From a plasmid: a DNA stretch of 64,000 nucleotides. Below the pieces are notes generated by a model that did no database searches, had not been told where the DNA came from, and saw nothing but the letters and a program-made list of their open reading frames with translations. The position numbers were made by a program, and so were the translations under genes. The stretch's first letter is position 1; every line of letters starts with the position of its first letter. Shown here piece after piece: positions 6,437-55,098 of this stretch. The DNA is taken from the sequence record NZ_CP072388.1; one strand, 5' to 3'.

Positions 6437-6939
6437 GTCTGACCCTGCGGATCGCGACCCCCGCCGACATGGCGGGGGTCGCGCGCATCTACGACCACTA
6501 CGTGACGACGTCGACCGCGACGTTCGAGCTCACCCCACCGGGCGAGACCGTGTGGGCGGACAAGCTCGTGGCCCTGCAGGGTGCGGGCTGGCCGTTCCTG
6601 GTCGCCGACCTCGACGGCGCCGTGTCCGGGTTCGCCTACGTGGGCCCGTGGCGCCCGCGCCCGGCCTACGCCCACACGGTCGAGGACACGATCTACCTCG
6701 ACCTCGCAGCGACCGGGCGCGGGATCGGGACCCGGCTGCTCGACCAGGTGCTCACCGACGCCGCAGCGGCCGGCGCACGAGAGGTGATCGCGGTCATCGC
6801 CGACGGCGACACCGCCGCATCACTCGCCCTGCACCGTCGCGCCGGGTTCACCGACGCCGGGCGCCTGGAACGCGTGGGCCGCAAGTTCGACCGGTGGCTG
6901 GGCACGACCCTGCTGCAGAAGTCCCTGCCCCTCCCGTAA
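6433..6939 (+). CDS. GNAT N-acetyltransferase of the phosphinothricin-acetyltransferase family (ArsN1-like)
   Basis: GTG start overlaps the upstream stop. IYDHYVTTSTATFEL...GFAYVGPWRPRPAYAHTVE...GRGIGTRLL matches PAT/Bar-family signature regions. Confidence 0.75.
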   Translation: MSLTLRIATPADMAGVARIYDHYVTTSTATFELTPPGETVWADKLVALQGAGWPFLVADLDGAVSGFAYVGPWRPRPAYAHTVEDTIYLDLAATGRGIGTRLLDQVLTDAAAAGAREVIAVIADGDTAASLALHRRAGFTDAGRLERVGRKFDRWLGTTLLQKSLPLP

Positions 6940-6961
6940 CCGCCCTGCGGGCACGGCAAAC

Positions 6962-7033
6962 ATAGATCGTGCTCTATCTGTCATCCGGGCTTCCGACCTC
7001 GTTCACCACACGTTCACATAGACCGCGTTCTAT
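6962..7033. promoter_or_regulatory. pstS promoter region: PHO-box-like 11-nt direct repeats plus two copies of palindrome ATAGA-N6-TCTAT
   Basis: GTTCACCACAC/GTTCACATAGA at 7001-7022 (two GTTCAC units 11 nt apart). ATAGATCGTGCTCTAT (6962-6977) and ATAGACCGCGTTCTAT (7018-7033). Confidence 0.4.
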
Positions 7034-7085
7034 CGATCGTGTTGGTGGATGCGGGCGGGCGAAGGTCCCGCCCCGACGAGACGGG

Positions 7086-20426: not shown

Positions 20427-22955
20427 TCAGCCGTCTGGGTCCGAGCTCGCACGTTCCGCCCTGATGGCTGAGGGCGGCCCCGTAGGCGAGAGCTGGGCGA
20501 CCTCCTGCCTACGGGTTCGCAGGTGCCTGAGACTCTCTTCCAGGGCCGCAACCTCTCCGAGCCAGACTCGCTCGCGCGCCTCTCGCAGCCGGGCTTCGGC
20601 GTTCACGGTCATCTCGTCGAGGCGGCCGGCCTGTGCGGGGTCGACCTTGAGGAAGCGGCATCGGGTGCAGGCGTGCTCGTGCACGCACGGGGTGCCGTAC
20701 GGGCGGCGGCAGTCGCCGAGGGCGACCTTGCGCAGCAGGAAGTGTTGCTCGAACTCGTTCCACTCGTCGGGGGTGGCCGTGCGCAGCTCTTCCTCGGGGC
20801 GGGTGTGCCGGCGTCGCTCGACGAAGGCGTGGTGGGCCTGGATGACGTGCTCGGGGAAGACGGCTGTGTAGCCGCGGGTCGTGTCGAGGTTCAGATGCCC
20901 CAGGAGCGTGGAGACGATGTGCAGCGGGAGGCCTGCGCCGACGAGGTCGGTGGCGAACAGGCGTCTGAAGTCGTGCGGAGTGAACCGTACGGGGGTCTCG
21001 CCGTCGTGGATCCCTGCTCGGTCGGCGACCTGGTGCAGGAGCGTGCGCACGTACTGGGCGGAGAGCACGCTCTGCCGGGAGCCGATCCTGCGGGCGAACA
21101 GGTGGGGGAGCGGGTCGCTGAACACCTTCTCGTTCGGGTCGTACCGGACCGACAGGGGGACGCTCGGGCTGCCGCCGCGTGCGCGGCGTTGGACCTCGAC
21201 AAGGACCTTGACCAGGTCGGGGCTCATCGGGACGAGGCGTTCGGCGTCGGTCTTCGACGGGACGATGTGCAGCAGCGGCACGATGGTGTTGGTGGTCGGC
21301 GCGACGTAGTGCCGCAGGGACAGCTGCGTGAGCTCGAGGAGCTCTTCGATCCGCACTCCCGTCTCGCGCAACGACTCGACCACGGCCCATGCCCAGAAGC
21401 TGTCGGCCTCCAGGCGAGAGATGCACACCAGGCCGCGTTGCGCCGGTGGGATGCGGGCGTGCTCGGCGATCTCGACGATCCGGGCCCAGACCTGGTTGCG
21501 CGCAGCTCGGTTCGAGTGGAGGGGCGGGTCGTGGCGTTCGTAGGTGATGCCATCGACGGTGAACCGCTCGCCGTGACCGGCCGTGACGGCTGCGGCCAGC
21601 AGCCGGCTCCCGTCCTCTCGTAGCGCGTGGGCGGCGGCGGTGAACCGTGGAAGGTGCGGGGTGAGTGTCCGGGTACGTGCTTGCATGCGCGAGCGTCGTT
21701 GACGGTTGGCCTTCGACGCGCTCCGGGACTCGTGTCGTGGGACGGGGCAGGGCGCGACCCAGTAGGCCCAGCGTTCGGGCTCCTCGTGGGACCACTCGGC
21801 CAGGTCGCGGTAGAGCGCGCGTACCGAGAAGAACACCGACGCCACGTCGCGACGCGGGTGTCCGTCAAGAGTCGTGGCGAGCCGCTCACGCCACCGAACA
21901 GCGACCGCCGGAGCCAGACGCAAGTCGGCCTGATCCGGATTCAGGGCGAGGACCTGTCCCCAGAAGAGGCGCACCAGCCGATACGACAGGCCTTCCAACG
22001 ACCCGTAGTCCAGGCTCGCGCGCAGCTCGCCGAGGTAGTCGACCAGCAGGTCCAGAACCCCTGAGTGCGGGAGGCCGTACCGGGCGACGAGGGTCTGGAC
22101 GGAGTGCTGGCGAGAGTTCCCGGCTGCCGCCCAGGCGGCCCGTAGCGTCGGCGGTTCACCGGCGAGGGGCCCCAGCGCGACCAGGAGCTCCCAGGCCAGG
22201 TGCTCCTTGTTGTGCCGCTGGGAGGTACGCACGACGTCGGCGTAGGCGAGCAGATCGTCGCCCGTGAGCCGTCCCAGGCGCTTGCCGGTGCGGATCAGGA
22301 CTCGCGCCAGGCAGGTCTCGGCGTTGCGGCGCGCGAGCTCGGGCGCGTGCTCATAGGCGGACAGTGCCCGTAGCCGGACCATGGCGTCGGGTTCGGCGGT
22401 GTCGAGGAACCGGGCTGACGGGGCGCGCCGGTAGTGCGCGGCTCGCAGCAGCCAGGAGTAGGAGGGCCGCACCGTGCGCGCCTCGATGAGCGACATCACG
22501 GCGATCGAGACGAGCTTCCTGTGCACGCCGGTCTGGAGAGCGACGGCATCGATGCCGCCGTTCGGTGCGGCGTCCAAGCCGCTGGAGATCCACCGTTCCT
22601 CCCACGTCGATCCCGGGTGCTGGGCGAGCCAGGTCAGCACCCTGCGTACGGCACGGTCGCGGGCACGCTGAGCTTTCGGGAGCGGCTGTGAACGGCCGGA
22701 CAGGTAGGACTCGACCCAGGTGCAGGTTGCCTCCACATCGAGGGTCTGCACGTGCGCGAGCTCGTGGTCGGGCTCTCGCAGTGGCGGCAGTAGGGCGGTG
22801 TCGTAGGCGGGCCGACCGCGCGTCCTGCCGTCCTTGGAGTGCATCGGGTCCGGTGCAACGGCCGCACGAAGGACCCGGGTGCGCCGTCTCGTCTCGGCTG
22901 CCTGTGCGCGCGAGGGCAACCTCGGGTCGAGCGCCACCTCGCCGGTGCCGCTCAC
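20427..22955 (-). CDS. large tyrosine recombinase (Tn554 TnpB-like)
   Basis: C-terminal catalytic region R...HDFRRLFAT...LLGHLNLDTTRGYT (R-H-R-Y). 842 aa. GTG start overlaps the upstream recombinase stop (GTGA). Confidence 0.85.
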   Translation of the reverse strand: MSGTGEVALDPRLPSRAQAAETRRRTRVLRAAVAPDPMHSKDGRTRGRPAYDTALLPPLREPDHELAHVQTLDVEATCTWVESYLSGRSQPLPKAQRARDRAVRRVLTWLAQHPGSTWEERWISSGLDAAPNGGIDAVALQTGVHRKLVSIAVMSLIEARTVRPSYSWLLRAAHYRRAPSARFLDTAEPDAMVRLRALSAYEHAPELARRNAETCLARVLIRTGKRLGRLTGDDLLAYADVVRTSQRHNKEHLAWELLVALGPLAGEPPTLRAAWAAAGNSRQHSVQTLVARYGLPHSGVLDLLVDYLGELRASLDYGSLEGLSYRLVRLFWGQVLALNPDQADLRLAPAVAVRWRERLATTLDGHPRRDVASVFFSVRALYRDLAEWSHEEPERWAYWVAPCPVPRHESRSASKANRQRRSRMQARTRTLTPHLPRFTAAAHALREDGSRLLAAAVTAGHGERFTVDGITYERHDPPLHSNRAARNQVWARIVEIAEHARIPPAQRGLVCISRLEADSFWAWAVVESLRETGVRIEELLELTQLSLRHYVAPTTNTIVPLLHIVPSKTDAERLVPMSPDLVKVLVEVQRRARGGSPSVPLSVRYDPNEKVFSDPLPHLFARRIGSRQSVLSAQYVRTLLHQVADRAGIHDGETPVRFTPHDFRRLFATDLVGAGLPLHIVSTLLGHLNLDTTRGYTAVFPEHVIQAHHAFVERRRHTRPEEELRTATPDEWNEFEQHFLLRKVALGDCRRPYGTPCVHEHACTRCRFLKVDPAQAGRLDEMTVNAEARLREARERVWLGEVAALEESLRHLRTRRQEVAQLSPTGPPSAIRAERASSDPDG

Positions 22956-24151
22956 GGTGTCCAGCCGAGCAGCTCACGCACGGCCGCCGCGTCGTAGTCG
23001 GGCTCGACAGCAGCAGGTGGCGGCTTGGGGCGGGAGAAGTGCTCGAGCACCTTGGCCAACACGTCCTCCATCCGGGGCTGGGTGTAAATCGTCGTGGTGA
23101 AGATGTTCACGTGGCGAAGGACCGTCTGGACGTCGACCAAGGTGAATGCCGGGTCGGCCAGCAGGCGCTCGGCGGCCGTGTGCCGCAGGTCGTGCAGCGT
23201 CCAGTTCGATCCGATCCCGCGTTGCGCGCGCGAGAACATGGCCCGAGCCGCGTGGTAGGTCAGTGGTCTGAGTGCCGCCCCGGTGCGCGTCCACCAGACC
23301 CGATCGCCGGGTGCCGCCGGCTGACCTTCGCGCATGTACAGCGCCAGCCACACGAACGCGTCCGGGCTCGCCGGGACGCGTTCTGGCGCGCGGCTTCCCT
23401 TGGTGACGACGGTGATCGTGTGCTCCCCGAAGTCGTAATCTCCGTGCCGCAGCTCCAGCAGCTCGGTTGCCCGCACGCCGCTGGAGAGCCAGAACGACAG
23501 CAGCGCTCGGTCACGGTGACACGTCAGCGCGTCGAAGATCTGGTCGACGTACTCGTCAGGGATGCCGCGCCAGCCGATCCTGGGTACCCGCTGGCGGTAC
23601 GGCGCCCGGGCATGCCGGCGAAATTCACGCATCGGGTCCTGGTGGGCGTTGACGCGGCCCCTGCCGGAACGCTGGGCGGGGACAGGGTTCACCAGCGGAC
23701 CCAGATCCGCGGCGAGCGCAAAGTCGTAGAACCCGGCCAGCACCGAAAGTTGGTGGTTGATCGTGCGCGGAGCAAAGCCTGTCGCGGGACTCGCCCTGCC
23801 GGTAACCATGTTGATCTCGGCGCCACGCTCTCCGCGTCGTAACGCGGTCGCCGTCGGTGCCGCCCGTAAGTACTCCACGAAGGCGCGCACGTCGACACGC
23901 TCAGCACGCTCCCACGCCACGAGCCGCTGGTGGAGGAACCGGAACCACCGGAGCAAGTCGTAGGCGTAGCTGCGGACCGTCGCGGGACTGCAGTCCGACG
24001 CAGACAGATCACGCAGGTACAAGGAGGCTGCTGCGTGCTCGAGATCGGGGAACACGACCCGGAACGGCAGGCCGGAGTCGCACTCCACGACCCGGCCCAC
24101 GGCGCCCGTCACGCGCGACAGCGTCCCATGACGCACACCGCACGTCACCAC
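22952..24151 (-). CDS. tyrosine recombinase (Tn554 TnpA-like / XerD-like)
   Basis: N-terminal SAM-like core-binding region. Catalytic HDLRHTAAERLL...LRHVNIFTTTIYT. Confidence 0.85.
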   Translation of the reverse strand: MVTCGVRHGTLSRVTGAVGRVVECDSGLPFRVVFPDLEHAAASLYLRDLSASDCSPATVRSYAYDLLRWFRFLHQRLVAWERAERVDVRAFVEYLRAAPTATALRRGERGAEINMVTGRASPATGFAPRTINHQLSVLAGFYDFALAADLGPLVNPVPAQRSGRGRVNAHQDPMREFRRHARAPYRQRVPRIGWRGIPDEYVDQIFDALTCHRDRALLSFWLSSGVRATELLELRHGDYDFGEHTITVVTKGSRAPERVPASPDAFVWLALYMREGQPAAPGDRVWWTRTGAALRPLTYHAARAMFSRAQRGIGSNWTLHDLRHTAAERLLADPAFTLVDVQTVLRHVNIFTTTIYTQPRMEDVLAKVLEHFSRPKPPPAAVEPDYDAAAVRELLGWTP

Positions 24152-34984: not shown

Positions 34985-35395
34985 TTACTGCTCGGCCGGG
35001 TGGTGCGCGTCGCGGAACAACCCCGGCGGCGGGACCTCGACGGGCCAGGCGTCCGGGAGCTGACGATCCTGCACGTCGCTCAGGCGCCAGAACGGGCCGT
35101 CGGTGGCGGTGATCTCGCGCATCTCGGGGCCGAGGTAGTCGCGGAAGAACACGCTCATGCCGGTCATGCCCTCACCGCGCAGGAACTCCCAGGACCGCCA
35201 CAGCGCCTCCAGGCGCGCGACGACCTCGGTGTACTCCCACCAGCGCGGGTCCCACCGGAAGGACTTGGGGTTGCGCTTGTAGTGCGGGAGCAGCCACTCG
35301 CGCACCCACACGTCGACGTTCGGGTAGAACGTCGCGACCGGCTCGGACTCGGGCACGTCGTCCAGGTCGATCTCGACCTCGTCGAACTCGCTCAT
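34985..35395 (-). CDS. DUF4913-like protein (conjugation-associated)
   Basis: MSEFDEVEIDLDD...FYPNVDVWVREWLLPHY. ATG overlaps the coupling-protein stop. Confidence 0.55.
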   Translation of the reverse strand: MSEFDEVEIDLDDVPESEPVATFYPNVDVWVREWLLPHYKRNPKSFRWDPRWWEYTEVVARLEALWRSWEFLRGEGMTGMSVFFRDYLGPEMREITATDGPFWRLSDVQDRQLPDAWPVEVPPPGLFRDAHHPAEQ

Positions 35396-37143
35396 GCTGC
35401 CTCCCGGGCGCGCGCCGGCACGTTGGTGCGCGCGGCGCGCTGGTTCTCGTAGTGGGCCAGGCTCGCGCTGACCTTGTCGGTGTAGGGGCGGGCGCTGTGG
35501 TGGTCCAGGCGCAGCAGCGCGGCCGGCAGCCCGGAGGCGAGCAGCACCGCGCGCCCGCGCGGCAACGCGGTCAGGTCGGAGACGTCGAACAGGCGCTGGC
35601 GGGCGACCGAGGTCGAGACGGTGCGGCTGGTCTTGTTCTGCGACGCAGAGCGCTTGACGACGTCGTGGTCGCCGATCAGGTTCGACACGAACGGCAGGAA
35701 CTTGTCTTCGGAGAGCCCGGACCCGACCACGCGCACGTTCGCCGCGCTCCACAGCTTCTGCATCCCGGTCTCCCCGAACGCTTCGGCGCCCTGGGACCAG
35801 GACTGGAAGAACGCGGACACCACGATGCCGCGCGACCCGTAGTGCGAGTACAGGTCGGGCAGCTCGCGCCAGCGGCACACGTTCGCGACCTCGTCCAGCA
35901 CCGCGGTGACCGGCGGGGCCAGGCGCCCGCCCACCCCGCGCGACCCGGCGCGCTCGGCCGCCGTGAGGATTGCCATCGTCAGCGCGGCGGTGATCGCCCG
36001 CGCGGAGCCCCCGCCCTCCTTGGACACGAGGTAGACGGTGTCGGTCGAGCGGACGAAGGCGGCCGGGTCGAAGTGCGGACGCCGCCCGGTCGGGTCGGTG
36101 ATCCAGTCGGCGATCTTGCGGCTGCCCAGGACCCCGATCCAGGGCCGGACCGTGCCGTACACGCCGTCGCGCTGCTTCTCGGTGAGCTTCTGCGTCTTTT
36201 CCAGCGCGATCGCCTGCGCACCCTCGCCGTGGGCTTTGAGCAGCGCGGCCGGGTTCTCCCCGTCGCGGGCGTCGGGGTCGTTGGCCCACGCGAACACGTC
36301 CGTGATCGGCCGGCGGGCCAGGGCGGCGGCGAGGAACAGGCGCGACAGCAGTTCCTTGCCTGCGGACTCGAAGTACGCGTCCTGCTTCGCCCCGGCCGTC
36401 GTCGCGGAGGAGATGAACACGTCGGCGAGCTTCTCGGCGGTCTCGAGGTCGGTGACGAAGGACAGCGGGTTCCACCACCAGGTAGGTCGCTCGCCGATGA
36501 TGTCCTGCACGTCGTGGACCCAGCACACCCCGTGCTCGCTGCGTGGCCCGCGGGTGGCGTCGACGATGTCGGGCTTGTTCGACGTCGCCACGACCGGCCC
36601 GGTGGTCTCGAGGATTTGCGGGATGCACACGCACGAGGTCTTGCCTGCGCGCGGGCCCATGAGCCAGATCTGCACCCACTCCCACGACGCGTACAGCGCC
36701 TTGCGGGAGGGCAGGTGCGTGCCGAGGGTGACCCCGATCCCGGCGCCGTCGGCGCCGAGCCGGGCCGCGTCGCGGCGGGCCGCGCCCTCGGTGAGCTCGG
36801 TGACGTCGCGGCCGGTGGCCAGGTACCGGGCCTTGTAGTCGATGCGTGAACGCTGGCGGCCGGTGCGCAGCGCGACCGTCGCGAGCAGTGCCGCCACGGC
36901 GAGGAAGCCGGCGACGATGCCCAGGGTGATCGCGGTCTGCGCCGCGGTGAACGCGACGTCGCCGCCGAGCACCTGCGCCACGGTGTCGACCGGGTTGGAG
37001 GTGTCGCGGATCTGCGGGTTGGCCATCGCGCCGGCCCACAGCGCGCCGGCGACGATCATCAGGAGCAGGAGCAGGCCGCCGAGCAGCATCCACCCGAGGT
37101 CGTTGGTCGCCGGTTCGGCCCGCCGGTTCGCCTCGCGGGCCAT
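35392..37143 (-). CDS. type IV secretion coupling protein (TraG/VirD4 family)
   Basis: N-terminal TM anchor. Walker A GPRAGKTS, VLDEVANV (Walker B). Confidence 0.85.
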   Translation of the reverse strand: MAREANRRAEPATNDLGWMLLGGLLLLLMIVAGALWAGAMANPQIRDTSNPVDTVAQVLGGDVAFTAAQTAITLGIVAGFLAVAALLATVALRTGRQRSRIDYKARYLATGRDVTELTEGAARRDAARLGADGAGIGVTLGTHLPSRKALYASWEWVQIWLMGPRAGKTSCVCIPQILETTGPVVATSNKPDIVDATRGPRSEHGVCWVHDVQDIIGERPTWWWNPLSFVTDLETAEKLADVFISSATTAGAKQDAYFESAGKELLSRLFLAAALARRPITDVFAWANDPDARDGENPAALLKAHGEGAQAIALEKTQKLTEKQRDGVYGTVRPWIGVLGSRKIADWITDPTGRRPHFDPAAFVRSTDTVYLVSKEGGGSARAITAALTMAILTAAERAGSRGVGGRLAPPVTAVLDEVANVCRWRELPDLYSHYGSRGIVVSAFFQSWSQGAEAFGETGMQKLWSAANVRVVGSGLSEDKFLPFVSNLIGDHDVVKRSASQNKTSRTVSTSVARQRLFDVSDLTALPRGRAVLLASGLPAALLRLDHHSARPYTDKVSASLAHYENQRAARTNVPARAREAA

Positions 37144-45083: not shown

Positions 45084-46524
45084 TCCGAAGACCGTGCCGG
45101 CCTTCCCGGTGGTCAACCTCGCGATGGCCGTCGACGGCGCCGTGACCGTCGATGGGCGCCCGGTCGAGGTCGCCCCGGGACAAACTCCCGCCGCTGCCGG
45201 CGTCGCGGCCGTGGCCGAGCTCGTGCGCGAGCAGGACCTGGGTGCGGTGCGCGTGCGCGCCGCCGCACCCGAAGGGGTCTTCCAGATGGTGGTCTCCGCC
45301 GACGGCGAGGCCATCGACACGACTCCCCCACCGCCTGCCCCACGCGGCCCCCGGCCGCGCCTGCTCCTGGGCATCGGCGCGGCCGCCGGGTGCGTCGTCG
45401 TACTCGGCGCGGCGACAGTCGGCGTCCTGGCGATCGCCGACGAGGCCGACCAGCCCCCGGCACAGACCCAGACCGCTACGCCCGAGCCGCTACCCGGCGC
45501 CGGCGCCAACCTGCCGGTCGCGACTCCCCCGGGCTTCGCGAGCCGGGCTACCTGGGCCGTGCCGGTGGACCCGCGCTCGACGCCGCTGGTCCGCGACGAC
45601 GGCTCGGTCGTCGTGACCACGCCGTCGGGCGACCTCAACATGCTCGACCCCGCTACCGGGCGCACGCGGTGGACCGGGACGGGCGCGCGGGGCGCTCTGG
45701 CGCTGAGCGAGGTCCAGGGCCGGCACGTCGTCGCCGCCACGTCCTCGTCCGAGCTGCACCTGTGGCCCCTCGACGTCACCGACCCCGCCCGCACCCCCGC
45801 CGTCGACCTCCCGCTGACCGCCCGCCGCGCCGAGGTCACCCACCTCGGATCCAGCCCGCTGGTCACCCTCGAGAACCAGACCGTTGCGGTGTTCGACGGC
45901 GAGGGCCTGGTGCGCCGCGACGTTCCGGTCGGCGCCGACCCGGTCCTCGCCCGCCACGACGGGATCGTGGCGGTCGGCGACGACGCCTGGTGGCTCATCA
46001 CCGCCGACGCCGATCCCGTGCGCCACGCCCTCCCGCGCCCCGACGGCGCCAGCGGCGCCCCGCTGGCCGTGTCTGCCGCCGACGACGCCACCCTGGTCAT
46101 CACCTGGCCGGTCGCCGGGCCGACGGACCTGGCCGCGCTCGTCGACATCGCCACCGGCCGCATCACGGCCCAGGCAGCCGTCGACGACGCGGCGATCGGT
46201 GCCGACGACGTCCCGCTGCACGATCCGACCGGGCAGACCATGACGCTCGGGACGCTGTTCGTCGACTACTCCCCCGAGCCGGCGATCCTCGAGCTCCCCG
46301 ACATCACGCCGACCGCGGTCCACGGACACACGATCCTTGGCACCGTCGGCCGCGCCGCGGCCGTCCTGGAGGCCGGGGACGACGAGCCCCGCATCTACGA
46401 CGAGTCCACCTCGGCGACCGCACCCCTCGCTGTCACCGACGACTACGCCTACGTCATGGCCGACAAGGTCGACCAGACGCTCCTGTACGCAGTACCCCGA
46501 ACCGACGAAGGGACGAACCCATGA
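45073..46524 (+). CDS. membrane-anchored hypothetical protein (beta-propeller-like repeats possible)
   Basis: GGGGAG RBS. Single TM (LLLGIGAAAGCVVVLGAATVGVL). Confidence 0.5.
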   Translation: MPLDPKTVPAFPVVNLAMAVDGAVTVDGRPVEVAPGQTPAAAGVAAVAELVREQDLGAVRVRAAAPEGVFQMVVSADGEAIDTTPPPPAPRGPRPRLLLGIGAAAGCVVVLGAATVGVLAIADEADQPPAQTQTATPEPLPGAGANLPVATPPGFASRATWAVPVDPRSTPLVRDDGSVVVTTPSGDLNMLDPATGRTRWTGTGARGALALSEVQGRHVVAATSSSELHLWPLDVTDPARTPAVDLPLTARRAEVTHLGSSPLVTLENQTVAVFDGEGLVRRDVPVGADPVLARHDGIVAVGDDAWWLITADADPVRHALPRPDGASGAPLAVSAADDATLVITWPVAGPTDLAALVDIATGRITAQAAVDDAAIGADDVPLHDPTGQTMTLGTLFVDYSPEPAILELPDITPTAVHGHTILGTVGRAAAVLEAGDDEPRIYDESTSATAPLAVTDDYAYVMADKVDQTLLYAVPRTDEGTNP

Positions 46525-47879
46525 TCAACGTCGTCGTCCACGCTGACGGCAGCGGCGGCCACGTCGAGCTGCCCGACGAGACCGTTCCCCTCGCACCGGG
46601 GAACCCCGCCGACGTCCAGCAGCGCGCCGTCAGCGTGCTCCTGCGCCACTCCGCGAAGGAAGGCCGACCCGTCACCGTCAAGGCCGTCGACGCCAGCGGC
46701 GCCAGACACCTACGCGTGACCCCGGACGGGCGCGTCGAGCCCGTGCGGAACCTCGACACCCCGCCCGCGCCCGCACCGTCTCCCGAGCAGGCCGACAACC
46801 CGGCGCCGCCCAGCCGCGACGAGTCGCCGGCGCCCGACGTCGACGCCGCCCCCACCACGCCGGCACCCGAGCCGACCCCCACCCTCGGCAGCGGCGACGA
46901 GCTCGCCCCCGCCGTCGAGCCCGGCCCGCCTGACCCCGCGGCGGCCGAGCCCATGACCCGCCGCGCCCGCAAGTCGTTCCTCACCGTCGCTCAGGCCGAG
47001 CAGCCCGCCATGAAAGGGCTGCGGGGAGCGATGACGCGCGCAGGCATCCGCATGGCACCCAGCGAAGCCGAGCGCATCGAGCGCGCCAACGTCCGCGCGG
47101 TCTCCCAGCACTGGCCCGGACCCCGGACCATCGCCGTCGTCAACGGCAAGGGCGGCGCAAGCAAGACGCCGACCACCGTCCTGCTCTCCGCGGTGTTCGC
47201 CCTCAACGGCGGCGCCGGCGTCGTGGCCTACGACAACAACCAGACCCGCGGCACTCTCGGCTGGCGCACCGAACAGGGCCCGCACGAGGCGACCCTGCTC
47301 GACATGCTCCCCCGCGCCACCCACCTGCTCGGCACCAGCGCGCAGTCGGCCGACCTCGCCCACTACGTGCACCACCAGACCCACGACCGCTACGACGTCC
47401 TGCGCTCCCAGCCCATGATGCTCGCCGACCAGCAGCGCCTGGGCGTCGACGACTTCGACGCCGTCCACGCCGTGCTCAAGAAGTACTACCGGCTCATCTT
47501 CGTCGACTCCGGCAACGACGAGTCCGACCCGCTGTGGCTGCGCATGATCGACCACGCCGACCAGCTCGTCGTCGCCACAACCACCCGAGCGGACATCGCC
47601 GAAGCCGGCGCCCTGCTGCTCGAAGCCCTGGCCGACCGCGACGAGCGATCGGCCGCCCTGGCTGCCGGCGCCGTCGTCGTCGTCAACCAGGCCAACGAGA
47701 AGGGCGGTCAGCACGAGGCCGACCAGATCGCCGACGGGTACCGAACGATCGCCCGCCAAGCGGTCACCATCCCCTACGACAAGGCGATGGTCGACGGACA
47801 CCTGCAGTTCTCGACGCTGCGCCCGACCACACGACGTGCTTGGCTTACGGCGGGGGCTGCAGTAGCGCGGGGCCTATAA
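46521..47879 (+). CDS. ParA/MinD-family P-loop ATPase with N-terminal extension (TadZ/CpaE-like)
   Basis: Deviant Walker A VNGKGGASKTPTT. ATG overlaps the upstream stop. Confidence 0.7.
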   Translation: MINVVVHADGSGGHVELPDETVPLAPGNPADVQQRAVSVLLRHSAKEGRPVTVKAVDASGARHLRVTPDGRVEPVRNLDTPPAPAPSPEQADNPAPPSRDESPAPDVDAAPTTPAPEPTPTLGSGDELAPAVEPGPPDPAAAEPMTRRARKSFLTVAQAEQPAMKGLRGAMTRAGIRMAPSEAERIERANVRAVSQHWPGPRTIAVVNGKGGASKTPTTVLLSAVFALNGGAGVVAYDNNQTRGTLGWRTEQGPHEATLLDMLPRATHLLGTSAQSADLAHYVHHQTHDRYDVLRSQPMMLADQQRLGVDDFDAVHAVLKKYYRLIFVDSGNDESDPLWLRMIDHADQLVVATTTRADIAEAGALLLEALADRDERSAALAAGAVVVVNQANEKGGQHEADQIADGYRTIARQAVTIPYDKAMVDGHLQFSTLRPTTRRAWLTAGAAVARGL

Positions 47880-47918
47880 CCCGCACAATGAGCATCAGCC
47901 GCACGCATAGAACGGACC

Positions 47919-48230
47919 GTGACTCACGTGCCCGCGACCCACGACGAGGACATCGACGCCCTCGGGCAGATCGCCCGCAGCGCCGATCGCACGGCCGTCG
48001 TGCGCCATCTGAGCACGCACCCCGGTGACTACTTCGGAGCCATCCACAAGGCCACCGGCATCTCCGTCGGAAGCCTCGGCAAACACCTACGCGACCTCGA
48101 AGCCGCCGGCATCATCGTCGGCGACCTCCCCCTCGAGCAGCGCAAGGGCCGCACCGTGCGCTACCACGTCGACGACAAGCGCCTGCGGACGCTCGTCAAG
48201 AAGCTCGAACGGCGCTTGCTGGGCCAGTGA
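47919..48230 (+). CDS. winged-helix transcriptional regulator (ArsR/MarR-like)
   Basis: IHKATGISVGSLGKHLRDLEAAGII HTH. Confidence 0.55.
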   Translation: MTHVPATHDEDIDALGQIARSADRTAVVRHLSTHPGDYFGAIHKATGISVGSLGKHLRDLEAAGIIVGDLPLEQRKGRTVRYHVDDKRLRTLVKKLERRLLGQ

Positions 48231-48570
48231 CACCAAGGGCTCTGCGGGACGGCAAGCAGTGCGCCGTCACCTCCGCTCGCCAGGCCGCTCGGGCTTCAAC
48301 GCGACCGGCGCCGGGGAAGCAAGCGTGCACCCGAGGGTGAGAGAGGACGACACACGCCTCGCAGGCGCGCATGGCCGCCGCGGAAACACCCTCCGCTTCT
48401 TCGGCATGCCTGACGTGGCGTCCAGCGCGCGGTATCACTGTGATCGCGATCGCAGTAGGCGCCCAGGGACGTACACGTTCAGGCGCCCATCGTCACGAAC
48501 ACGCGGCGGGCGACACGCCGACACGCCAGTTGCAGAATTCGTCCGGATTCAGGAAGTCGTGTGGTTGAGT

Positions 48571-49044
48571 ATGCCCATGACGATCTCCACGGGACGACCG
48601 AGCAAGGGTGACAGGGACCAGTTCCTGCTCGAGCTCCCCGTCGCCGCCGCGGACATCCTTCGACGCAACGCCGACGCCCTGCAGATGCCCCACGGCGAGT
48701 ACATCGCCGCGGTCCTCGCCGAGCAGGTGGGCATGCCCTGGCTCGCACCTGTCGAGACGCGAGCACCGTATGCCGGCCGCATTCAGGAGATGCTCGACGA
48801 AGTCGGAGTGAAGGCGTGGGACACCGCTCCTGCCTCCGGTTGGGCCGAGACCATCAAGTTCACGACGCGTCCCGCGCGGCCCATCGGAGATCTCGTCCGT
48901 TCACGCTCGCGCGTGCAGGGCATGACGTACAAGGAGTACATCGTCGCGGCAGTCATGGCGTGGCACGGCATCACGCGTGATGCCGACCCTGCGTTGGCGC
49001 CCCGTTCGCGCTACGCCCGGGAGGCGATGCGCCAACCCGCATAA
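48571..49044 (+). CDS. hypothetical protein with internal duplication
   Basis: Two related segments (...EYIAAVLAEQVGMPW / ...EYIVAAVMAWHGI). Followed by a strong terminator. Confidence 0.4.
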   Translation: MPMTISTGRPSKGDRDQFLLELPVAAADILRRNADALQMPHGEYIAAVLAEQVGMPWLAPVETRAPYAGRIQEMLDEVGVKAWDTAPASGWAETIKFTTRPARPIGDLVRSRSRVQGMTYKEYIVAAVMAWHGITRDADPALAPRSRYAREAMRQPA

Positions 49045-49048
49045 GAAA

Positions 49049-49076
49049 GTGGCCCGTCCCTTGCGGGACGGGCCAC
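49049..49076. terminator. hairpin, 12-bp perfect stem
   Basis: GTGGCCCGTCCC-ttgc-GGGACGGGCCAC. Confidence 0.5.
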
Positions 49077-49194
49077 CAGATCGAACCACTTCCGGCGACT
49101 TGCTTGGCGGCTGGAAACCGGAGCGGTTCTCTACCTAAGAACAGGAGCCATCATACCCACCGCCCCGACGGGGCGCGATTTCGCCTACACCGGC

Positions 49195-50994
49195 GTGTCG
49201 TCGCCAACCGTTTCCGAGCTCTCGCAGGCGAGCCATGCGCACCCGCGCGCAGGCTCGCCCGACGAGCAGTGGGCGGACACCGCGCACCTCCTTGCAGGGT
49301 GCGACCGGGTGCGCATCGGCACGATCCGCGCTGATCGCAGCGTCGACTACCCCACCCGCGGCGAACGTAAACTCACACTCGCGCGTCCGACGGCACCGGC
49401 CGCGGTCCGCGTCTACGGTGATGACGGCTGCTGCCGCGCCCTGTTCCTCGACCTCGACGCCAAGGGCCGCCACGGTGCGGTCGACGTAGCCCGAGACGGA
49501 GCAGTGCTGCAGCGCATCCTCGCCGTTGCCGGGCTGCGTACCTTCGTCGACATCGCCCCGACCGGTGGTCGTCACATCTACGTCCCCCTCGCCAAGCGTC
49601 TGCCGTTCGAGGTTGCTCGCGAGCTCGTCGAGGCGCTTGCCCGGCACGCGCCCACGCTCGATCCAGGCCCGCACCGCAGCGTGCGCACCGGGTGCATCCG
49701 CACGCCAGGATCCACGCACGGCGCCGGCGGCCACCAAGTCCTGACCAGCAGCCTCTCGAGCGCTGTCGACGTCCTCAAGCGACCCAACCCACCCACCGCC
49801 ATTGCAGAGCTCCGCGGCATGCTCGCCGGCGACATTGCCGCGGTCCGCGCTCAGCGCGACGACCTGACAATCGTCTCTGCGCCCACCTCTGACCAGCCCG
49901 GTGCACCCGGCACGCTCTCCGCCCGTGTCGTCGCGATCGCCCGCAACGGGCTCTGGGACGTCGGCCGCTACGACTCGCCATCCGCTGCACGCCAGGCGGT
50001 CATCACGGCCTGCGTGCGTGCCGGCTGGGACATCACCGATGTGCAGCGTCGACTCAACGATGGCACATGGCCGGCTCTCGCGGGCATGTACGCCCGGTAC
50101 TCCCCCGCACGGCGCCCCGTGTCCCTGCGGGCCGACTGGCTCAAGGCGAGGGCGTACATCGCCTGTACGCCTCAAGACCCGAAAACCAGCAGTGACGTGC
50201 AGAAAGACAGTGTGCACATCTCCAACACAAGCGCTCTTCTGTCACAGGGGGGCGACGACCACGGCTGGATCCGAACCTGGCGGGCTGCGGTCTCCACCTA
50301 CGAGACGGTGCGTCTTCCCGGTAGGCACTGGTACACGGCACGGTTTCTTCTCCGTGCGATCGGAGAGGCTGCACACAAGACCGGCAGCAGGTACGTCGGA
50401 TTCGGCTGCAGATCGCTCGCTGAAGCCTGCGGAGCCGACTACACGACGGTGTCAGTCTTACTGCACGAACTCCAGCGTGCTGGCTGGATCGACCTGATCG
50501 AGTCCGCGCGCGGCGAGACAGCAGACCTGTACGAGCTCACCCTCCCCCACGATCTCCGCGGCCGGTCGGACGAACTGCGCTGGCAGCGTGGCAAGGTGTA
50601 CTCGCTTCGGCCGGCCTTCCGCGAGCTCGGCCACGTCAGTGCTTTCGTCTTCGAGGCCGTTGAGCAGGGCAGGGCCTCCTCCATCACGGAACTTGTCGCC
50701 ATCACCGGGATCTCGCGACGAGCTGTTCACACCAGCATTGACCTGCTCACCGCCTGGGACCTCGTCGAACGCACAGACGAGGGCCTGCGAGCCTTCCCGG
50801 AGCGCCTCGGGCGTGTCGCCGAGCACCTCGGCGCCTTCGAGGCGATCTACGAGCAGATGCGCCGTCACCGCGCACAGCGGGCCACCTGGCGGGCCTGGCT
50901 CGCGCGGTTCGAGGGCCACTGGGATGAGGGCGAGCACTGGGACGAACTCCACTCCCCCGCGGCCGAGACCCTCTTCGCGACGGAGGTGGCCTGA
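49195..50994 (+). CDS. replication protein with N-terminal primase-polymerase (PrimPol/AEP) domain
   Basis: AEP motifs ALFLDLDAK (DxD) and IAPTGGRHIYVPL (sGxGxH-like). 599 aa. Confidence 0.65.
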   Translation: MSSPTVSELSQASHAHPRAGSPDEQWADTAHLLAGCDRVRIGTIRADRSVDYPTRGERKLTLARPTAPAAVRVYGDDGCCRALFLDLDAKGRHGAVDVARDGAVLQRILAVAGLRTFVDIAPTGGRHIYVPLAKRLPFEVARELVEALARHAPTLDPGPHRSVRTGCIRTPGSTHGAGGHQVLTSSLSSAVDVLKRPNPPTAIAELRGMLAGDIAAVRAQRDDLTIVSAPTSDQPGAPGTLSARVVAIARNGLWDVGRYDSPSAARQAVITACVRAGWDITDVQRRLNDGTWPALAGMYARYSPARRPVSLRADWLKARAYIACTPQDPKTSSDVQKDSVHISNTSALLSQGGDDHGWIRTWRAAVSTYETVRLPGRHWYTARFLLRAIGEAAHKTGSRYVGFGCRSLAEACGADYTTVSVLLHELQRAGWIDLIESARGETADLYELTLPHDLRGRSDELRWQRGKVYSLRPAFRELGHVSAFVFEAVEQGRASSITELVAITGISRRAVHTSIDLLTAWDLVERTDEGLRAFPERLGRVAEHLGAFEAIYEQMRRHRAQRATWRAWLARFEGHWDEGEHWDELHSPAAETLFATEVA

Positions 50995-51002
50995 GATGAG
51001 GG

Positions 51003-51125
51003 CCGAGGCCCCAGCGATCTTCATTCATGAACACAGACATGAACCACGTCATGAACCGTGTTCGCCAGTCATGACTTCATGCATTCATGCAAACATGCAC
51101 AACCAGGCGTCCGCCGGACACCCTG
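51003..51125. repeat. AT-rich iteron cluster (TTCATGCAT-type) upstream of parA
   Basis: CATTCATGAACA...GTCATGAACC...TTCATGCATTCATGCAAACATGCAC. Confidence 0.5.
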
Positions 51126-51147
51126 GACGACTTGAGAGAGGTACGCG

Positions 51148-51924
51148 ATGACGACGACGACCGCGCTCGGAAACCAGAAGGGCGGTGTCGGGAAGACCAC
51201 GGTGTCGCTGTGTCTGCTGAGCGAGCTCGCTCGTCTCGGCAGGTCATGTCTGCTGATCGACCTCGATCAGCAGATGTCTGCGTCCTCGACCGTGGGCGCG
51301 GAGGGCGACATCACGATCGAGGACGTCCTGCGCGCGAAGGCTCCCGCGCACCTGTCCGATGCGATCGAGAAGTCGCAGTGGGAGGGGATCGACGTCGTTC
51401 CGGGCTCCGACACCATCCAGACCCTTGAACGTGACCCCGACGTCATGGCCGCCTTCCGTCTCCAGAAGGTCCTTCGAGACAACGCCGACCTGCTCTCCAA
51501 GTACGACGACATCATCATCGACCTGCCACCGGATCTGGGGACCTGTACGGTCTCCGGCCTCCTCGCGGCCGACCAGGTCGTCGCCGTGACGATCCCGGAG
51601 CCGTGGAGTTCCGAAGGCCTCGACCGATTCCTCACTACGCTCGAGGGGATCCGCCAGGGGCCTCACCCCTCGTTGACCCTGTTCGGCGTCATCGTGAACA
51701 TGGTCCGCCGCACCAACGAGCACCGGTACCGCATCGCCGAGTTGAACGACTCCGTGGGCGGGCTCGTCATGAACCCGGTGATCCCGCAGCGCGTCGCCGC
51801 GGCGGAGGTCGCAAGCGAGCAGCTGCCGCTGCACGAGCTGAAGAACGAGGGCGCAAAGGTCCTATCAGACCTGTTCGCTGAGCACGCCAGGGCGCTGGCC
51901 GAGGGCCGGAAGGGGAAGAACTGA
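51148..51924 (+). CDS. parA: ParA partition ATPase
   Basis: Deviant Walker A GNQKGGVGKTTVS, GAGAGG RBS. Confidence 0.85.
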   Translation: MTTTTALGNQKGGVGKTTVSLCLLSELARLGRSCLLIDLDQQMSASSTVGAEGDITIEDVLRAKAPAHLSDAIEKSQWEGIDVVPGSDTIQTLERDPDVMAAFRLQKVLRDNADLLSKYDDIIIDLPPDLGTCTVSGLLAADQVVAVTIPEPWSSEGLDRFLTTLEGIRQGPHPSLTLFGVIVNMVRRTNEHRYRIAELNDSVGGLVMNPVIPQRVAAAEVASEQLPLHELKNEGAKVLSDLFAEHARALAEGRKGKN

Positions 51925-52535
51925 TGCCGAAGCCGCGAATGTCGAAGAGAACAGCTCTCGACGTCGTCCTCGGTCAGCCGGCGCCTGTCGCGGCGCCGGA
52001 GTCCGGAAACGGGACGAGCACAACCACCGCTGTGGTCGAGCCTGAGCAGAGGGACGAAGGGCCAACGTCTGACGAGGCCGAAGGAACCGAACCCGAGCCC
52101 GCGCCCACAGCGGATGGCGCCCCGTCGGCAGAGAGCACAACGCTCGTTACGCCGGATCAGGACGAGACGGCGGAAGTTGAGGACGGCCAGCGCGAGACCA
52201 GCGAGACGGACGAGGCAGGCGAACCCGCTGAGTCGGCCGAGCCTGAACCGCTGCCCACCCCGGAGCCGGGGCCACGCCAGGCGGCGTCGAAGGCTCGACC
52301 TCGCAGGCATGCTCCGGCTGCCCCCTCTCTCGAGGAGTCTGACCCCCGATTTCAGCCGGTGCTCGGACGCAACGATGATGCTGCGCTCGTGCCGTTCTCG
52401 ACCCGCCTTACCCCAGATCTACGTCGCCGGCTCAAGCTCTACTCCGCGGTGTCGGGCGAGTCCACGACCAGCCTGACCAACCGCGCGCTCGACTACATGC
52501 TCGAGGTGGCCGAACGCAAGGTCGGCATGCGCTGA
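51924..52535 (+). CDS. ParG-like ribbon-helix-helix centromere-binding protein with acidic disordered N-terminus
   Basis: ATG overlaps the parA stop. C-terminal RHH VPFSTRLTPDLRRRLKLYSAVSGESTTSLTNRALDYML. Confidence 0.6.
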   Translation: MPKPRMSKRTALDVVLGQPAPVAAPESGNGTSTTTAVVEPEQRDEGPTSDEAEGTEPEPAPTADGAPSAESTTLVTPDQDETAEVEDGQRETSETDEAGEPAESAEPEPLPTPEPGPRQAASKARPRRHAPAAPSLEESDPRFQPVLGRNDDAALVPFSTRLTPDLRRRLKLYSAVSGESTTSLTNRALDYMLEVAERKVGMR

Positions 52536-52551
52536 GTCATCCCGTCCATGT

Positions 52552-52586
52552 CTGAGGGCCCTGCGTCGATCGCGCGGGGCCCTCAG
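52552..52586. terminator. hairpin after the partition operon
   Basis: CTGAGGGCCC-N15-GGGCCCTCAG. Confidence 0.45.
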
Positions 52587-52599
52587 CCTTTGCGCAGGC

Positions 52600-53030
52600 G
52601 TGTGTGAAGTCATGAATGCATGAAGTCATGAGTACCGCGGTCCCAGCCGCGCCCAGCACCGTTCATGAAAGCATGCATGAATGCATAAACTCGCGAGCCC
52701 ATCGTTGGGCCGGCGTACATCCACCACCCGGACAGTTCATGCATGCCTTCATGAAAGCAGGAACGAATGAATGCATGATCCCGTGACCACTTTGCGTGCG
52801 TCGGTGAAAGTATGAAGTAGTTCACGCATTCATGTACCACTTCATGCATGACTGCATGTGTTGATGAAGCAAGTCATGAAGCCATTCATGTTTACATGCA
52901 TTCATGCATGACGTCATGAACGCATGAATGCATGAACGGTTCTCCTGCGAGCTGTTGGTTCGGGCGACCATGCATGAATGCATGAATGCATGCATGCGTT
53001 CATGCAGTTCACACTGCCTCGCCTGCCTTG
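52600..53030. repeat. ~430-bp AT-rich array of >10 copies of ATGCATGAA / TTCATGCAT in both orientations (candidate centromere/iteron region)
   Basis: e.g. TCATGAATGCATGAAGTCATGA, CATGAACGCATGAATGCATGAA, CCATGCATGAATGCATGAATGCATGCATGCGTTCATGC. GC far below flanks. Confidence 0.6.
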
Positions 53031-53136
53031 TCCTCGTTGGCGCAGTCGCGGGACAACCGAGATTAGAAGCTCCACGTGAGTGGGGCACAGCTCGTATGTG
53101 CGCACCTAGGCTGACATCGATAGAGCGGGAGGTGCG

Positions 53137-53667
53137 ATGGTCGAGCGTGGATCCTGCCGCACGTGCGGCGTGGAAACTGTCCGCCTGAGGTGCTTCGACG
53201 GCACTGTGCGGACATTCCACGCGCGAGAAGCCGCCAATCCCGATCTCGACGAGTCTCAGCGCTGGTACTACACGGCCACGCGCGGAGCGATCAGCGGCGC
53301 CGACGCGTCCTCGCCACCCAACAGGCCGTACCTAACCCTTCACCAGTGCCTGCGCACACGCGCCGGCTTCGGCGAGTCCACCAGAAACGAGGCCGGCACG
53401 ATCCGTGCCGCCGACGCAGTCGCGCTCCGTACGGATGTCCCCACGGTCAACGACTCGGCGCTGAGCCTCACCGGCTACCGCTGGACGTACCGATGGCCGT
53501 CCCACTGGGCGCACATCATCGCAGGCCGAGCACCCCAGGCGCTGTGCGGCGCCACCGTCCTGGTGCCCGAGGAGATGAGCGAGAGGGAACGCGCGCGGAT
53601 CTCGACGATGCACGTGTGCCCACGGTGCGTGCAGACGAACGCCCGCCACGAACGAACACGTCGCTAG
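53137..53667 (+). CDS. zinc-ribbon-containing hypothetical protein
   Basis: CRTCG near the N-terminus and CPRC near the C-terminus. Confidence 0.45.
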   Translation: MVERGSCRTCGVETVRLRCFDGTVRTFHAREAANPDLDESQRWYYTATRGAISGADASSPPNRPYLTLHQCLRTRAGFGESTRNEAGTIRAADAVALRTDVPTVNDSALSLTGYRWTYRWPSHWAHIIAGRAPQALCGATVLVPEEMSERERARISTMHVCPRCVQTNARHERTRR

Positions 53668-53728
53668 GGGAGCACGCGCATCGACGCCGTGTGCGAAGAT
53701 CTACAACGAATGCAAAGACTGCAAAGGA

Positions 53729-54868
53729 GTGCGAACGGTGGCGCGTAACCCGTTCAAGCCCACAGCGGGCGCCACACCGCCCCTGCTCGTCGGGCGTGAT
53801 GACGACCTCGAGGAGTTCGCTGAATCCCTGGACGACGGACCAGGCGCGCCCGGACGACTGACGATCTTCACCGGCGCCCGCGGCGTCGGCAAGACCGTGA
53901 TGCTCACCGAGGTCGCCGACACCGCGCTCCAGCGAGCCTGGGTGACGATCGCCGAGACCGCCACGCCCGGCCTCATCGACCGCCTCTCGGCAGCCACCTC
54001 GATGCTCTCGCGCGAGCACGATCCGACCAGCCACCGCGGCCGCAGCATCACCGGTGTCACCCTGCCGGTCGTAGGTGGAGGCCTCACCTTCAGCCAGGCA
54101 CCTGCCGTCGTCACGGCGTGGCGCGACGAGCTCGGGGGAGTGCTCGACGCACTCGAGAACCACGGCACCGGACTGCTCGTCACGATCGACGAGGTCCACC
54201 ACGTCGCACGCGAAGACCTTCGCGCACTCGCCGCAACGTTCCAGCACCTGGTACGCGAAGACCGCAACGTCGCCCTCGCCTTCGCCGGTCTCCCGTCGTC
54301 GGTCTCCGACCTGCTCAACGACGACGTCCTGACCTTCCTGCGCCGCGCCACACCCGTCCACCTGGAAGACGTCGCCCTCGACGACGTCAAGACCGCCCTG
54401 CGCACCACCATCACCGACAGCGGACGCACCATCACCGACACCGCCCTCGACGCCGCCGCACAAGCCACCGGCGGCTACCCCTTCATGATCCAGCTCGTCG
54501 GCTACCACGTATGGCGCAAAGCCAGCAGCGACACCATCGACGAAGCCGCCGTCGCACTCGGCATCCCAGCCGCCCGCAAGCGACTCGGCTCCACCGTCCA
54601 CGCCACGGCCCTCGCCGACCTGTCCGACGTCGACCGCACCTATCTGCTCGCCATGGCACAAGACGACGGCCCCTCCCGCACCGGAGTCATCGCGAAGCGA
54701 CTACGCGTCAGCGACTCCTACGCCCAGGTCTACCGCGGCAGACTCCTCGACGCCGGCATGATCGAGACAACCAGACGCGGCTACGTCGACTTCGCCATCC
54801 CCTACCTGCGCGAATACCTCCGCGAGCACGCCGCCCAGTACGAGATGGCAAACCGCCCCGAGAACTGA
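53729..54868 (+). CDS. AAA-type ATP-binding protein (Arch_ATPase-like) with C-terminal winged helix
   Basis: Walker A GARGVGKT, Walker B LLVTIDEVHHV. Confidence 0.65.
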   Translation: MRTVARNPFKPTAGATPPLLVGRDDDLEEFAESLDDGPGAPGRLTIFTGARGVGKTVMLTEVADTALQRAWVTIAETATPGLIDRLSAATSMLSREHDPTSHRGRSITGVTLPVVGGGLTFSQAPAVVTAWRDELGGVLDALENHGTGLLVTIDEVHHVAREDLRALAATFQHLVREDRNVALAFAGLPSSVSDLLNDDVLTFLRRATPVHLEDVALDDVKTALRTTITDSGRTITDTALDAAAQATGGYPFMIQLVGYHVWRKASSDTIDEAAVALGIPAARKRLGSTVHATALADLSDVDRTYLLAMAQDDGPSRTGVIAKRLRVSDSYAQVYRGRLLDAGMIETTRRGYVDFAIPYLREYLREHAAQYEMANRPEN

Positions 54869-54936: not shown

Positions 54937-55098
54937 ATGACCCTCGACGTCAACTACCCGCCTACTCACCACCCAGCCGTAGCCGTCCCTGAGCGCCAAG
55001 ACGTCGAGCAGTCCCTGCTCGCCCACCTCCCTCAGCCCACAACGCCAGCCATCGGAGACCTGACCTGGCCAGGCCTCGAGGCACCCGAGAGCCTCTAG
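54937..55098 (+). CDS. small hypothetical protein (53 aa)
   Basis: AAGGAG RBS 6 nt upstream of ATG. Confidence 0.3.
   Translation: MTLDVNYPPTHHPAVAVPERQDVEQSLLAHLPQPTTPAIGDLTWPGLEAPESL

Follow-up and report, generated by a model that had tools for sequence, protein, structure and literature searches.

This study concerns a candidate plasmid partition locus in a stretch of 64,000 nt from the plasmid record NZ_CP072388.1 (the window), in which a parA gene, the gene of a small partner protein and two groups of short repeats lie together at 50995-53040, next to a rep-like gene. The partner is referred to here as CBP, for centromere-binding protein, which is its proposed function. The initial annotation, made from the DNA letters alone, had read the locus as parA and a ParG-type ribbon-helix-helix (RHH) protein, flanked on both sides by arrays of a 9-mer that could serve as centromeres and/or as iterons of the neighbouring replication protein (Rep). 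The product of parA carries the motif GNQKGGVGKTT at residues 7-17 (Walker A at 9-17) and matches the Pfam families AAA_31 (2.8e-32) and CbiA (3e-21), which together span residues 4-227; a match to the NCBIfam model ParA_partition falls below the cutoff. Its best relatives of solved structure are Soj of T. thermophilus (1wcv; 7e-25, with the alignment starting from residue 5) and 8ray, and it is a small Walker ParA that lacks the HTH (helix-turn-helix) domain found at the N-terminus in type Ia. The small partner gene follows immediately, its ATG overlapping the TGA of parA, and the same gene order is found in the loci L003-L007 and L010. The coordinates of all features are collected in Table 1.

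The 9-mer of the initial annotation, ATGCATGAA/TTCATGCAT, is present in nine exact copies in the window against 0.03 expected, one upstream and eight downstream. When up to one mismatch is tolerated, 26 copies are found against 2.8 expected, with four at 51020-51092, 18 at 52616-53007 and four scattered elsewhere, in keeping with the three to four upstream and more than ten downstream copies noticed before; the reported occurrence in both orientations and in tandem has been likewise confirmed, the tandem string being located at 52970-52996. The 9-mer, however, is not the repeat unit. We rejected it as a functional unit, since it is merely the tetramer CATG with half of each adjacent spacer, and the true unit is the palindromic CATG itself, which is arranged in a strict 4-bp register and mostly spaced by 8 bp from centre to centre. 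There are altogether 36 perfect boxes, seven upstream of parA and 29 downstream of the CBP gene (52611-53004). CATG is the most enriched 4-mer in the region 52595-53015 (28 copies against 1.6 expected), and all 16 occurrences of CATG-N4-CATG in the 64 kb fall inside the two arrays, with 0.6 expected. The gaps of up to 32 bp between adjacent boxes of the window arrays are multiples of 4 in 29 cases out of 29 (16 gaps of 8 bp, six of 4 bp, four of 12 bp, two of 20 bp and one of 24 bp), compared to six out of 24-25 outside the arrays, i.e. the quarter expected by chance. Beside the box the spacers tend towards A or T (CATG-A-A or T-T-CATG), and in their other positions they are diverse, which indicates that the arrays are not simple tandem duplications, with the qualification that one downstream sub-cluster (E) approaches a degenerate (CATG)n.

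The upstream array begins 32 bp after the stop codon of rep and ends 51 bp before the start of parA. Its boxes begin at 51026, 51038, 51050, 51070, 51078, 51086 and 51094, all in a single phase modulo 4. The downstream boxes form five sub-clusters (A-E), each of which is in phase internally and out of phase with the others. Sub-cluster D also includes the in-register degenerate boxes TATG (52811), CACG (52823) and GATG (52863), and it is located within the lowest-GC stretch of the window. The enrichment of the arrays in A and T, pointed out in the initial annotation, is evident from the GC content of 56% upstream and 50% downstream against 70.6% in the window; the 200 bp of lowest GC content in the whole 64 kb are those at 52737-52936 (44%), and the upstream array ranks fourth lowest. 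This AT-richness derives from the boxes and spacers themselves. The downstream array is separated from the par genes by a GC-rich hairpin, whose RNA (70 nt) is predicted to fold with -37.1 kcal/mol (z = -4.05) and which is probably the terminator of the operon; a simple terminator scan missed it because a T-run is absent. Different GC-rich inverted repeats are found at the same position in homologous loci.

Table 1. Features of the candidate partition locus and of contigs with similar arrays
Feature	Position	Strand	Description
rep-like gene	49195..50994	+	PrimPol-like N-terminal region and MarR-type winged helices; neighbour, outside the par module
upstream CATG-box array	51026..51097	.	7 perfect boxes; proposed operator and auxiliary centromere
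parA	51148..51924	+	258-aa deviant Walker-A ATPase without N-terminal HTH extension
CBP gene (proposed centromere-binding protein)	51924..52535	+	203 aa; 1-nt overlap of its start with the parA stop
hairpin	52552..52586	+	perfect 15-bp stem directly 3' of the CBP stop, followed by CCUUUG; probable terminator
downstream sub-cluster A	52611..52630	.	3 CATG boxes at 8-bp spacing
downstream sub-cluster B	52664..52687	.	3 CATG boxes (52664-52679) and one in-register degenerate CATA
downstream sub-cluster C	52738..52777	.	4 CATG boxes at spacings of 4, 8 and 24 bp
downstream sub-cluster D	52811..52934	.	largest; 12 perfect CATG boxes (52831-52934)
downstream sub-cluster E	52969..53004	.	6 CATG boxes: CATG CATG aatg CATG aatg CATG CATG cgtt CATG
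CATG 8-bp stretches, unrelated contigs	L029 856-1030; L037 1190-1400; L188 5139-5250
CATG 8-bp stretches, unrelated contigs	L151 7950-7980; L169 3191-3218; L226 9921-9948

The two-site arrangement recurs in all four homologous loci that we compared with the window (L003, L004, L006 and L007, from Cellulosimicrobium and one metagenome-assembled genome (MAG)), whose CBPs are ~50-55% identical overall. In every one of them the stretch from rep to parA contains 4-6 phased CATG boxes, and another 17-28 follow the CBP gene; when the short gaps of all five loci are pooled, 111 of 115 in the arrays are multiples of 4, against nine of 37 outside. The upstream intergenic region is 78-86% identical to that of the window, compared to 86% for parA and 76-79% for the end of rep, and the mean column identity of the upstream array in the five-locus alignment is 91%; none of the five loci shows a change in the boxes at 51026, 51038 and 51086, and those at 51050 and 51070 are each altered in one locus. 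Upstream, the array has the conservation of coding DNA. The downstream 600 bp, in contrast, are only 56-60% identical to the window and essentially unalignable, as is the linker of CBP (see below), although the high number of boxes is kept, and the array remains beside the CBP gene although the flanking genes beyond it vary from locus to locus. Even next to P0016 (locus L009), the most divergent member of the CBP family, CATG boxes at 8- and 12-bp spacing follow a hairpin of that locus before the contig ends.

These comparisons bear on an alternative according to which the arrays are non-functional or unrelated to partition, and represent either a degenerate (CATG)n microsatellite generated by slippage or a cluster of methylation or restriction sites. 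Sub-cluster E can indeed be read as a 4-bp period repeated 9.5 times, many of the spacers (AATG, CATT) differ from CATG at a single position, and most of the matches to a four-box pattern in metagenomes (see below) are microsatellites. However, the spacers of the upstream array are unrelated and the array has the conservation described above, and both arrays hold their positions beside the par genes in diverged loci despite the turnover of sequence. As to methylation, no DNA methyltransferase was found among ~25 open reading frames (ORFs) of the window in a partial Pfam scan, and methylation would leave the 4n phasing unexplained. We therefore regard this alternative as very improbable.

In the partner protein a conserved N-terminal peptide (residues 1-20, MPKPRMSKRTALDVVLGQPA) is followed by an acidic, proline-rich, disordered linker (~21-125), a basic patch and a conserved C-terminal domain (~140-203); in an alignment of 16 CBP homologues the N-terminal peptide (MPKPRMQKRTALDVVLGQPAP) and the C-terminal domain are nearly invariant, and the linker is hypervariable. 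In the AlphaFold2 (AF2) model the linker residues 21-125 have a predicted local distance difference test score (pLDDT) below 50, and residues 160-200 reach at least 90; an extended segment, PFSTRL, leads into two helices, 164-177 and 181-200. A short helix is predicted at residues 11-15 of the N-terminal peptide. When a model of the C-terminal domain was compared to the Protein Data Bank (PDB) with Foldseek, ~40 of the 51 matches turned out to be RHH proteins, including CopA_SO, AtaR, PutA, MazE, KacA, CopG, Arc, AmrZ and NikA, and the centromere protein of pCXC100 (3no7) was found at rank 18. The top match, CopA_SO, has a probability of 0.90, a target-normalised template modelling (TM) score of 0.78 and a root-mean-square deviation of 0.8 A over 41 residues; all E-values exceed 0.5, as the domain is tiny. 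The Pfam family RHH_10 matches 15 of the 16 family members, always below the cutoff. Each of these lines is weak when taken individually, and we use the RHH fold of the C-terminal domain as a working assignment based on modelling.

The description of the partner as an RHH protein has thus held at the level of the predicted fold, but its placement in the ParG family has not. No match of CBP to Pfam ParG was obtained at E <=0.1, nor at E <=1 across the 16 members, and profile searches of PDB sequences with the full-length and domain alignments returned chance matches alone, with no ParG chain among them; neither ParG nor omega nor the ParB of pCXC100 could be linked to CBP at the sequence level in these Pfam and PDB searches. 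Judging from the database searches, the CBP family is nearly orphan. The 16 homologues were found among 5.8 billion clustered proteins, and their hosts are Cellulosimicrobium or Isoptericola, except for one MAG labelled Mycobacterium; for the near-identical P0002 the annotation gives Cellulosimicrobium cellulans and a contig of 146 kb. An exhaustive HMMER search of 1.84 billion representatives with the C-terminal 75 residues found six sequences, a scan of genome contigs for relatives found one locus, and PLSDB contained no match to the CBP protein and none to the DNA of the downstream array. The distant relatives P0017 and P0018 comprise two tandem copies of the CBP domain, which fits a unit that functions as a dimer, and the N-terminus of P0017 bears a motif resembling that of CBP, RIRRSALQIAMG.

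The locus of P0017 (L010, a metagenomic contig) also carries repeats. There, ParA and the tandem-RHH relative are followed by 22 consecutive 8-bp units GCATGnnn in one register (1581-1756), among them GCATGGTT and GCGTGGCT, and the arrangement gives the impression of the same system in a version with a single-chain pseudo-dimer. Besides this relative, scans for four CATG boxes at an 8-bp period returned at least 120 stretches from metagenomes and 107 viral stretches. Most of these are microsatellites, so that no estimate of frequency is possible, and the scans, set against no background model, demonstrate recurrence alone. Arrays with diverse spacers have been found directly upstream of ParA homologues (25-31% identical) in L029, L037, L188, L151 and L169, and in L226 an array directly follows an ORF with an RHH-like C-terminus, located downstream of ParA; the gene after ParA in L037 begins an RHH-like protein with a proline-rich linker. 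These contigs come from metagenomes and a viral catalogue and have a GC content of 45-67%. Phased CATG arrays may therefore be, as far as the sequences suggest, a recurrent type of par site, and it is conceivable, though improbable, that such arrays with the 8-bp period constitute a widespread centromere 'code', so far undescribed, on which unrelated RHH partition proteins of plasmids and phage-plasmids rely. In the literature we found no paper on CATG in connection with RHH proteins and partition, and nothing relevant on the partition of Cellulosimicrobium plasmids.

The possibility that the repeats are iterons, raised by the initial annotation, was examined by comparing plasmids with a related Rep. 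The Rep encoded in the window matches the Pfam family MarR_2 (9e-10) and, below the cutoff, LigD_Prim-Pol (6e-5), and its homologues are found on plasmids of Cellulosimicrobium, Xylanimonas, Cellulomonas, Arthrobacter and others. According to this explanation the arrays, chiefly the AT-rich downstream one, would be a replication origin that comprises iterons for the PrimPol/winged-helix Rep and a DNA-unwinding element. In its favour, no stretch of the window has a lower GC content than the downstream array, and rep is located within 1.6 kb of it; a search of the region 46500-49300 near rep revealed only repeats at the level of chance, and no other iteron-like repeats were found upstream of rep. 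However, the Rep of plasmid pTL2A is 55% identical to that of the window over its full length (in a comparison of 519 residues), with the winged-helix/HTH region included, and yet pTL2A has another par cassette and other repeats. Its ParA is only 25% identical to ours, the partner protein is unrelated to CBP, and the repeats are palindromes of the CTTGCAAG/TTGCAAT type that occur only upstream of parA (L001 6680-6815), with none downstream. In p110066 of Cellulomonas, which also has a related Rep, the repeats are CAAGC boxes at ~8-9 bp, again upstream of parA (L008 6750-6935). The repeats thus change with the par cassette while Rep remains related, which argues against Rep iterons; the sequences suggest that par cassettes, together with their sites, have been swapped as modules beside a conserved rep.

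The geometry of the repeats points in the same direction. Classical origin iterons are 17-22 bp long, unlike the 4-bp box with its 8-bp repeat, and a 4-bp box with an 8-bp period is typical of RHH arrays rather than of the iterons of winged-helix Rep proteins. Where an iteron origin would have a direct unit of ~17-22 bp next to an AT-rich unwinding element, the window contains a 4-bp palindrome in a 4n register, and the AT-richness that is present lies in the boxes and spacers. Moreover, like arrays adjoin ParA or RHH genes in the unrelated contigs described above, and no rep gene was noticed in those examined in detail, though no systematic search for rep was made. An origin role in place of a partition role is consequently unlikely.

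In terms of known partition systems, the cassette shows the testable defining features of the type Ib class: in addition to the small ParA and the adjacent small partner gene, the partner has an RHH-like domain (AF2, Foldseek and RHH_10, with weak single E-values), and iterated short repeats (7 + 29 phased boxes) lie beside the operon at positions kept in homologues. Its sequence is outside the ParG, omega and pCXC100-ParB families. In the parH/OF sites of TP228 each tetramer box is followed by a 4-bp spacer and bound by one ParG dimer, with cooperative coating of the DNA; the promoter-proximal OF (8 boxes) doubles as an operator beside the larger, 12-box centromere array, and the behaviour of parH has been reported as 'pliable' (PMC3130281). 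The same architecture of 4-bp box and 4-bp spacer, in mixed arrangements, is found in the window arrays, and as in TP228 parFGH it goes along with a small ParA of the Walker type and a small partner, for which an RHH domain and a flexible tail at the N-terminus are predicted here. The differences are, however, considerable. The box is the palindromic CATG instead of ACTC, there are 36 perfect boxes instead of 20, and the main array is located downstream of the operon, behind a hairpin and in five out-of-phase sub-clusters, whereas that of TP228 is upstream. CBP, with 203 aa and an acidic linker of ~100 aa, is also much longer than ParG (76 aa), to which no sequence similarity was detected.

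The par2 locus of pB171 has the order parC1-parA-parB-parC2 (PMC4270457). It resembles the window in being of type Ib, with an RHH ParB and repeat-array sites on either side of parAB, the flanking of the genes on both sides being found in the window and at the four homologous loci. According to work attributed to Ebersbach & Gerdes 2001 and Ringgaard et al. 2007, the pB171 sites reportedly consist of ~17 and 18 short repeats and are paired by ParB. The pB171 boxes are 6 bp long, and thus the repeats of the two systems differ in sequence and length; besides, pB171 par2 belongs to Enterobacteria and the present locus to Micrococcales, and the two arrays here are very unequal in size (7 vs 29 boxes). 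Another actinobacterial type Ib cassette is that of pCXC100 from Leifsonia xyli (Microbacteriaceae), whose ParB has no DNA-binding motif recognizable by sequence but possesses a C-terminal dimeric RHH domain after a flexible N-terminal region, and whose dimers bind successive short repeats cooperatively (PMC3074162). A palindromic tetramer and a downstream array are absent there, and no sequence-level relation to CBP has been found. Outside this group, the RHH dimers of MetJ, a metabolic repressor, bind contiguous 8-bp metboxes (2-5 boxes), and those of omega of pSM19035, both a regulator and a centromere protein acting at several sites, bind non-palindromic 7-bp heptads in direct or inverted orientation, with neighbouring dimers in contact in both cases; neither protein is related in sequence to CBP. 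In summary, the site grammar is closest to that of TP228, and the flanking layout is closest to that of pB171 par2.

As outlined above, we interpret the locus as a type Ib ParA/RHH plasmid partition cassette, whose cis-acting sites are built from palindromic CATG tetramer boxes, and we assign to this interpretation a probability of roughly 0.72. It retains from the initial annotation the idea of parA and an RHH protein with the repeats as its putative binding sites, arranged as two sites upstream and downstream, for which gene content, fold modelling and comparison of loci argue, and abandons the 9-mer as the unit and the iterons. The upstream array is most likely the operator and the downstream array the main centromere. 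Each CBP dimer would read one CATG by placing a two-stranded β-ribbon (residues ~156-162, PFSTRLT, with an Arg that does not vary among distant relatives) in the major groove. At a box spacing of 8 bp the dimers would touch, bind cooperatively and coat the array, in the geometry known for ParG on ACTC boxes and for MetJ on metboxes, and CATGCATG and the 12-bp steps would shift the coat between two interleaved 8-bp frames. The upstream seven-box array, the arrangement of which is constrained, would act as an autoregulatory operator and, like OF in TP228, perhaps also as a minor centromere. The main centromere would be the downstream ~400-bp array (29 boxes in five sub-clusters), which seems free to reshuffle, in line with the behaviour reported for parH, and on which tens of dimers would sit. 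Their tethered N-terminal peptides (Lys8/Arg9, helix 11-15) would then contact nucleoid-bound ParA-ATP and stimulate its ATPase activity, and this stimulation would drive the segregation of a large conjugative plasmid along a ParA gradient in the usual way. In ParG, residues 8-22 form a helix in the cleft of ParF and carry an arginine-finger-like motif (PMC7308502), and by analogy the N-terminal peptide of CBP is a likely ParA-activating element.

Several points weigh against this interpretation. It draws its support from gene content, fold modelling and comparison, and the roles of the components in binding, stability and expression are putative. A scan of the region 50900-53200 for sigma-70 and terminator consensus sequences gave nothing, and a manual search of the upstream region for TANNNT was also negative; as no promoter was found in the upstream array, its role in autoregulation is argued by analogy. 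The AT-rich downstream array may have an additional role at the origin. In such a dual-function version the ~400 bp would serve as centromere under a coat of CBP and also as the region where the PrimPol-type Rep unwinds the DNA or initiates replication, an idea that we consider improbable; if it were true, the assembly of the segregation complex and the initiation of replication would be coupled on a single scaffold of CATG boxes.

The last of these points concerns a 155-aa ORF (48577-49044, +) located directly upstream of rep, whose product has no match in Pfam or NCBIfam and in which two internal RHH-like repeats can be discerned by eye. This ORF is 87-98% identical in all array-bearing homologous loci and absent from pTL2A, and for this reason the comparison within the family cannot separate the 155-aa protein from CBP as the binder of the boxes. 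The 155-aa protein may be a regulator of rep, and it is conceivable that the boxes are bound by it or by another regulator and form a regulatory or silencing array rather than a ParA-dependent centromere. However, the 155-aa protein is without support from family or fold assignments, the arrays flank parA and the CBP gene and not the 155-aa gene, and the independent contigs with CATG/8-bp arrays have ParA and an RHH-like partner alongside, which makes a different binder improbable compared to CBP acting in a partition cassette.

The gene content around the cassette has been surveyed as well. In the window, the downstream array is followed by a pair of genes at 53137-54868 (+), which encode a 176-aa zinc-finger-like protein and a 379-aa AAA_16 ATPase and precede a small conserved ORF. 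At that position other loci have a small ORF and a ParB_N gene, or a reverse-strand gene and a glutaredoxin gene; since the homologous loci do not have the pair there, it looks like an insertion, and PADLOC returned no convincing match to a defence system for it. The small conserved ORF (54937-55098, +) encodes 53 aa (MTLDVNYPP...DLTWPG), and counterparts of it follow the par region in L003, L004, L007 and pTL2A (L001 8222-8380). Elsewhere the window encodes a T4 coupling protein, DUF4192, ParB_N and DUF6573 proteins and tyrosine recombinases, including an adjacent pair of tyrosine-recombinase genes (20427-24151, -) and a TraG/TraD-type coupling gene (35392-37143, -), and genes for a sulfate permease, RNase J and a phosphate-binding protein are located at 565-8069. 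This gene content suggests that the window was taken from a large conjugative plasmid, or from a mobile element of a similar kind, that carries accessory cargo.

Partner proteins and centromeres of the type Ib class are known to be extremely diverse (PMC3074162), and therefore we rate the locus as a further example of a well-known system and not as a new one. What sets it apart is the palindromic sequence of the box (CATG), how many boxes there are, the multi-cluster main array downstream of the operon behind a hairpin, and the nearly orphan CBP with its acidic linker of ~100 aa. With 36 boxes in a perfect 4n register, some in a proposed operator under constraint and the others in a main array that evolves fast, the locus would provide a clean and experimentally tractable actinobacterial model of an RHH-type centromere. 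Three questions could be addressed with it: what influence a box spacing of 4, 8 or 12 bp has on the cooperativity with which RHH dimers coat DNA, for what reason operators are kept constant when centromere arrays are not, and what a long disordered tether does to the stimulation of ParA. For practical use, the analysis supplies an annotation of the probable stability module of large Cellulosimicrobium plasmids.

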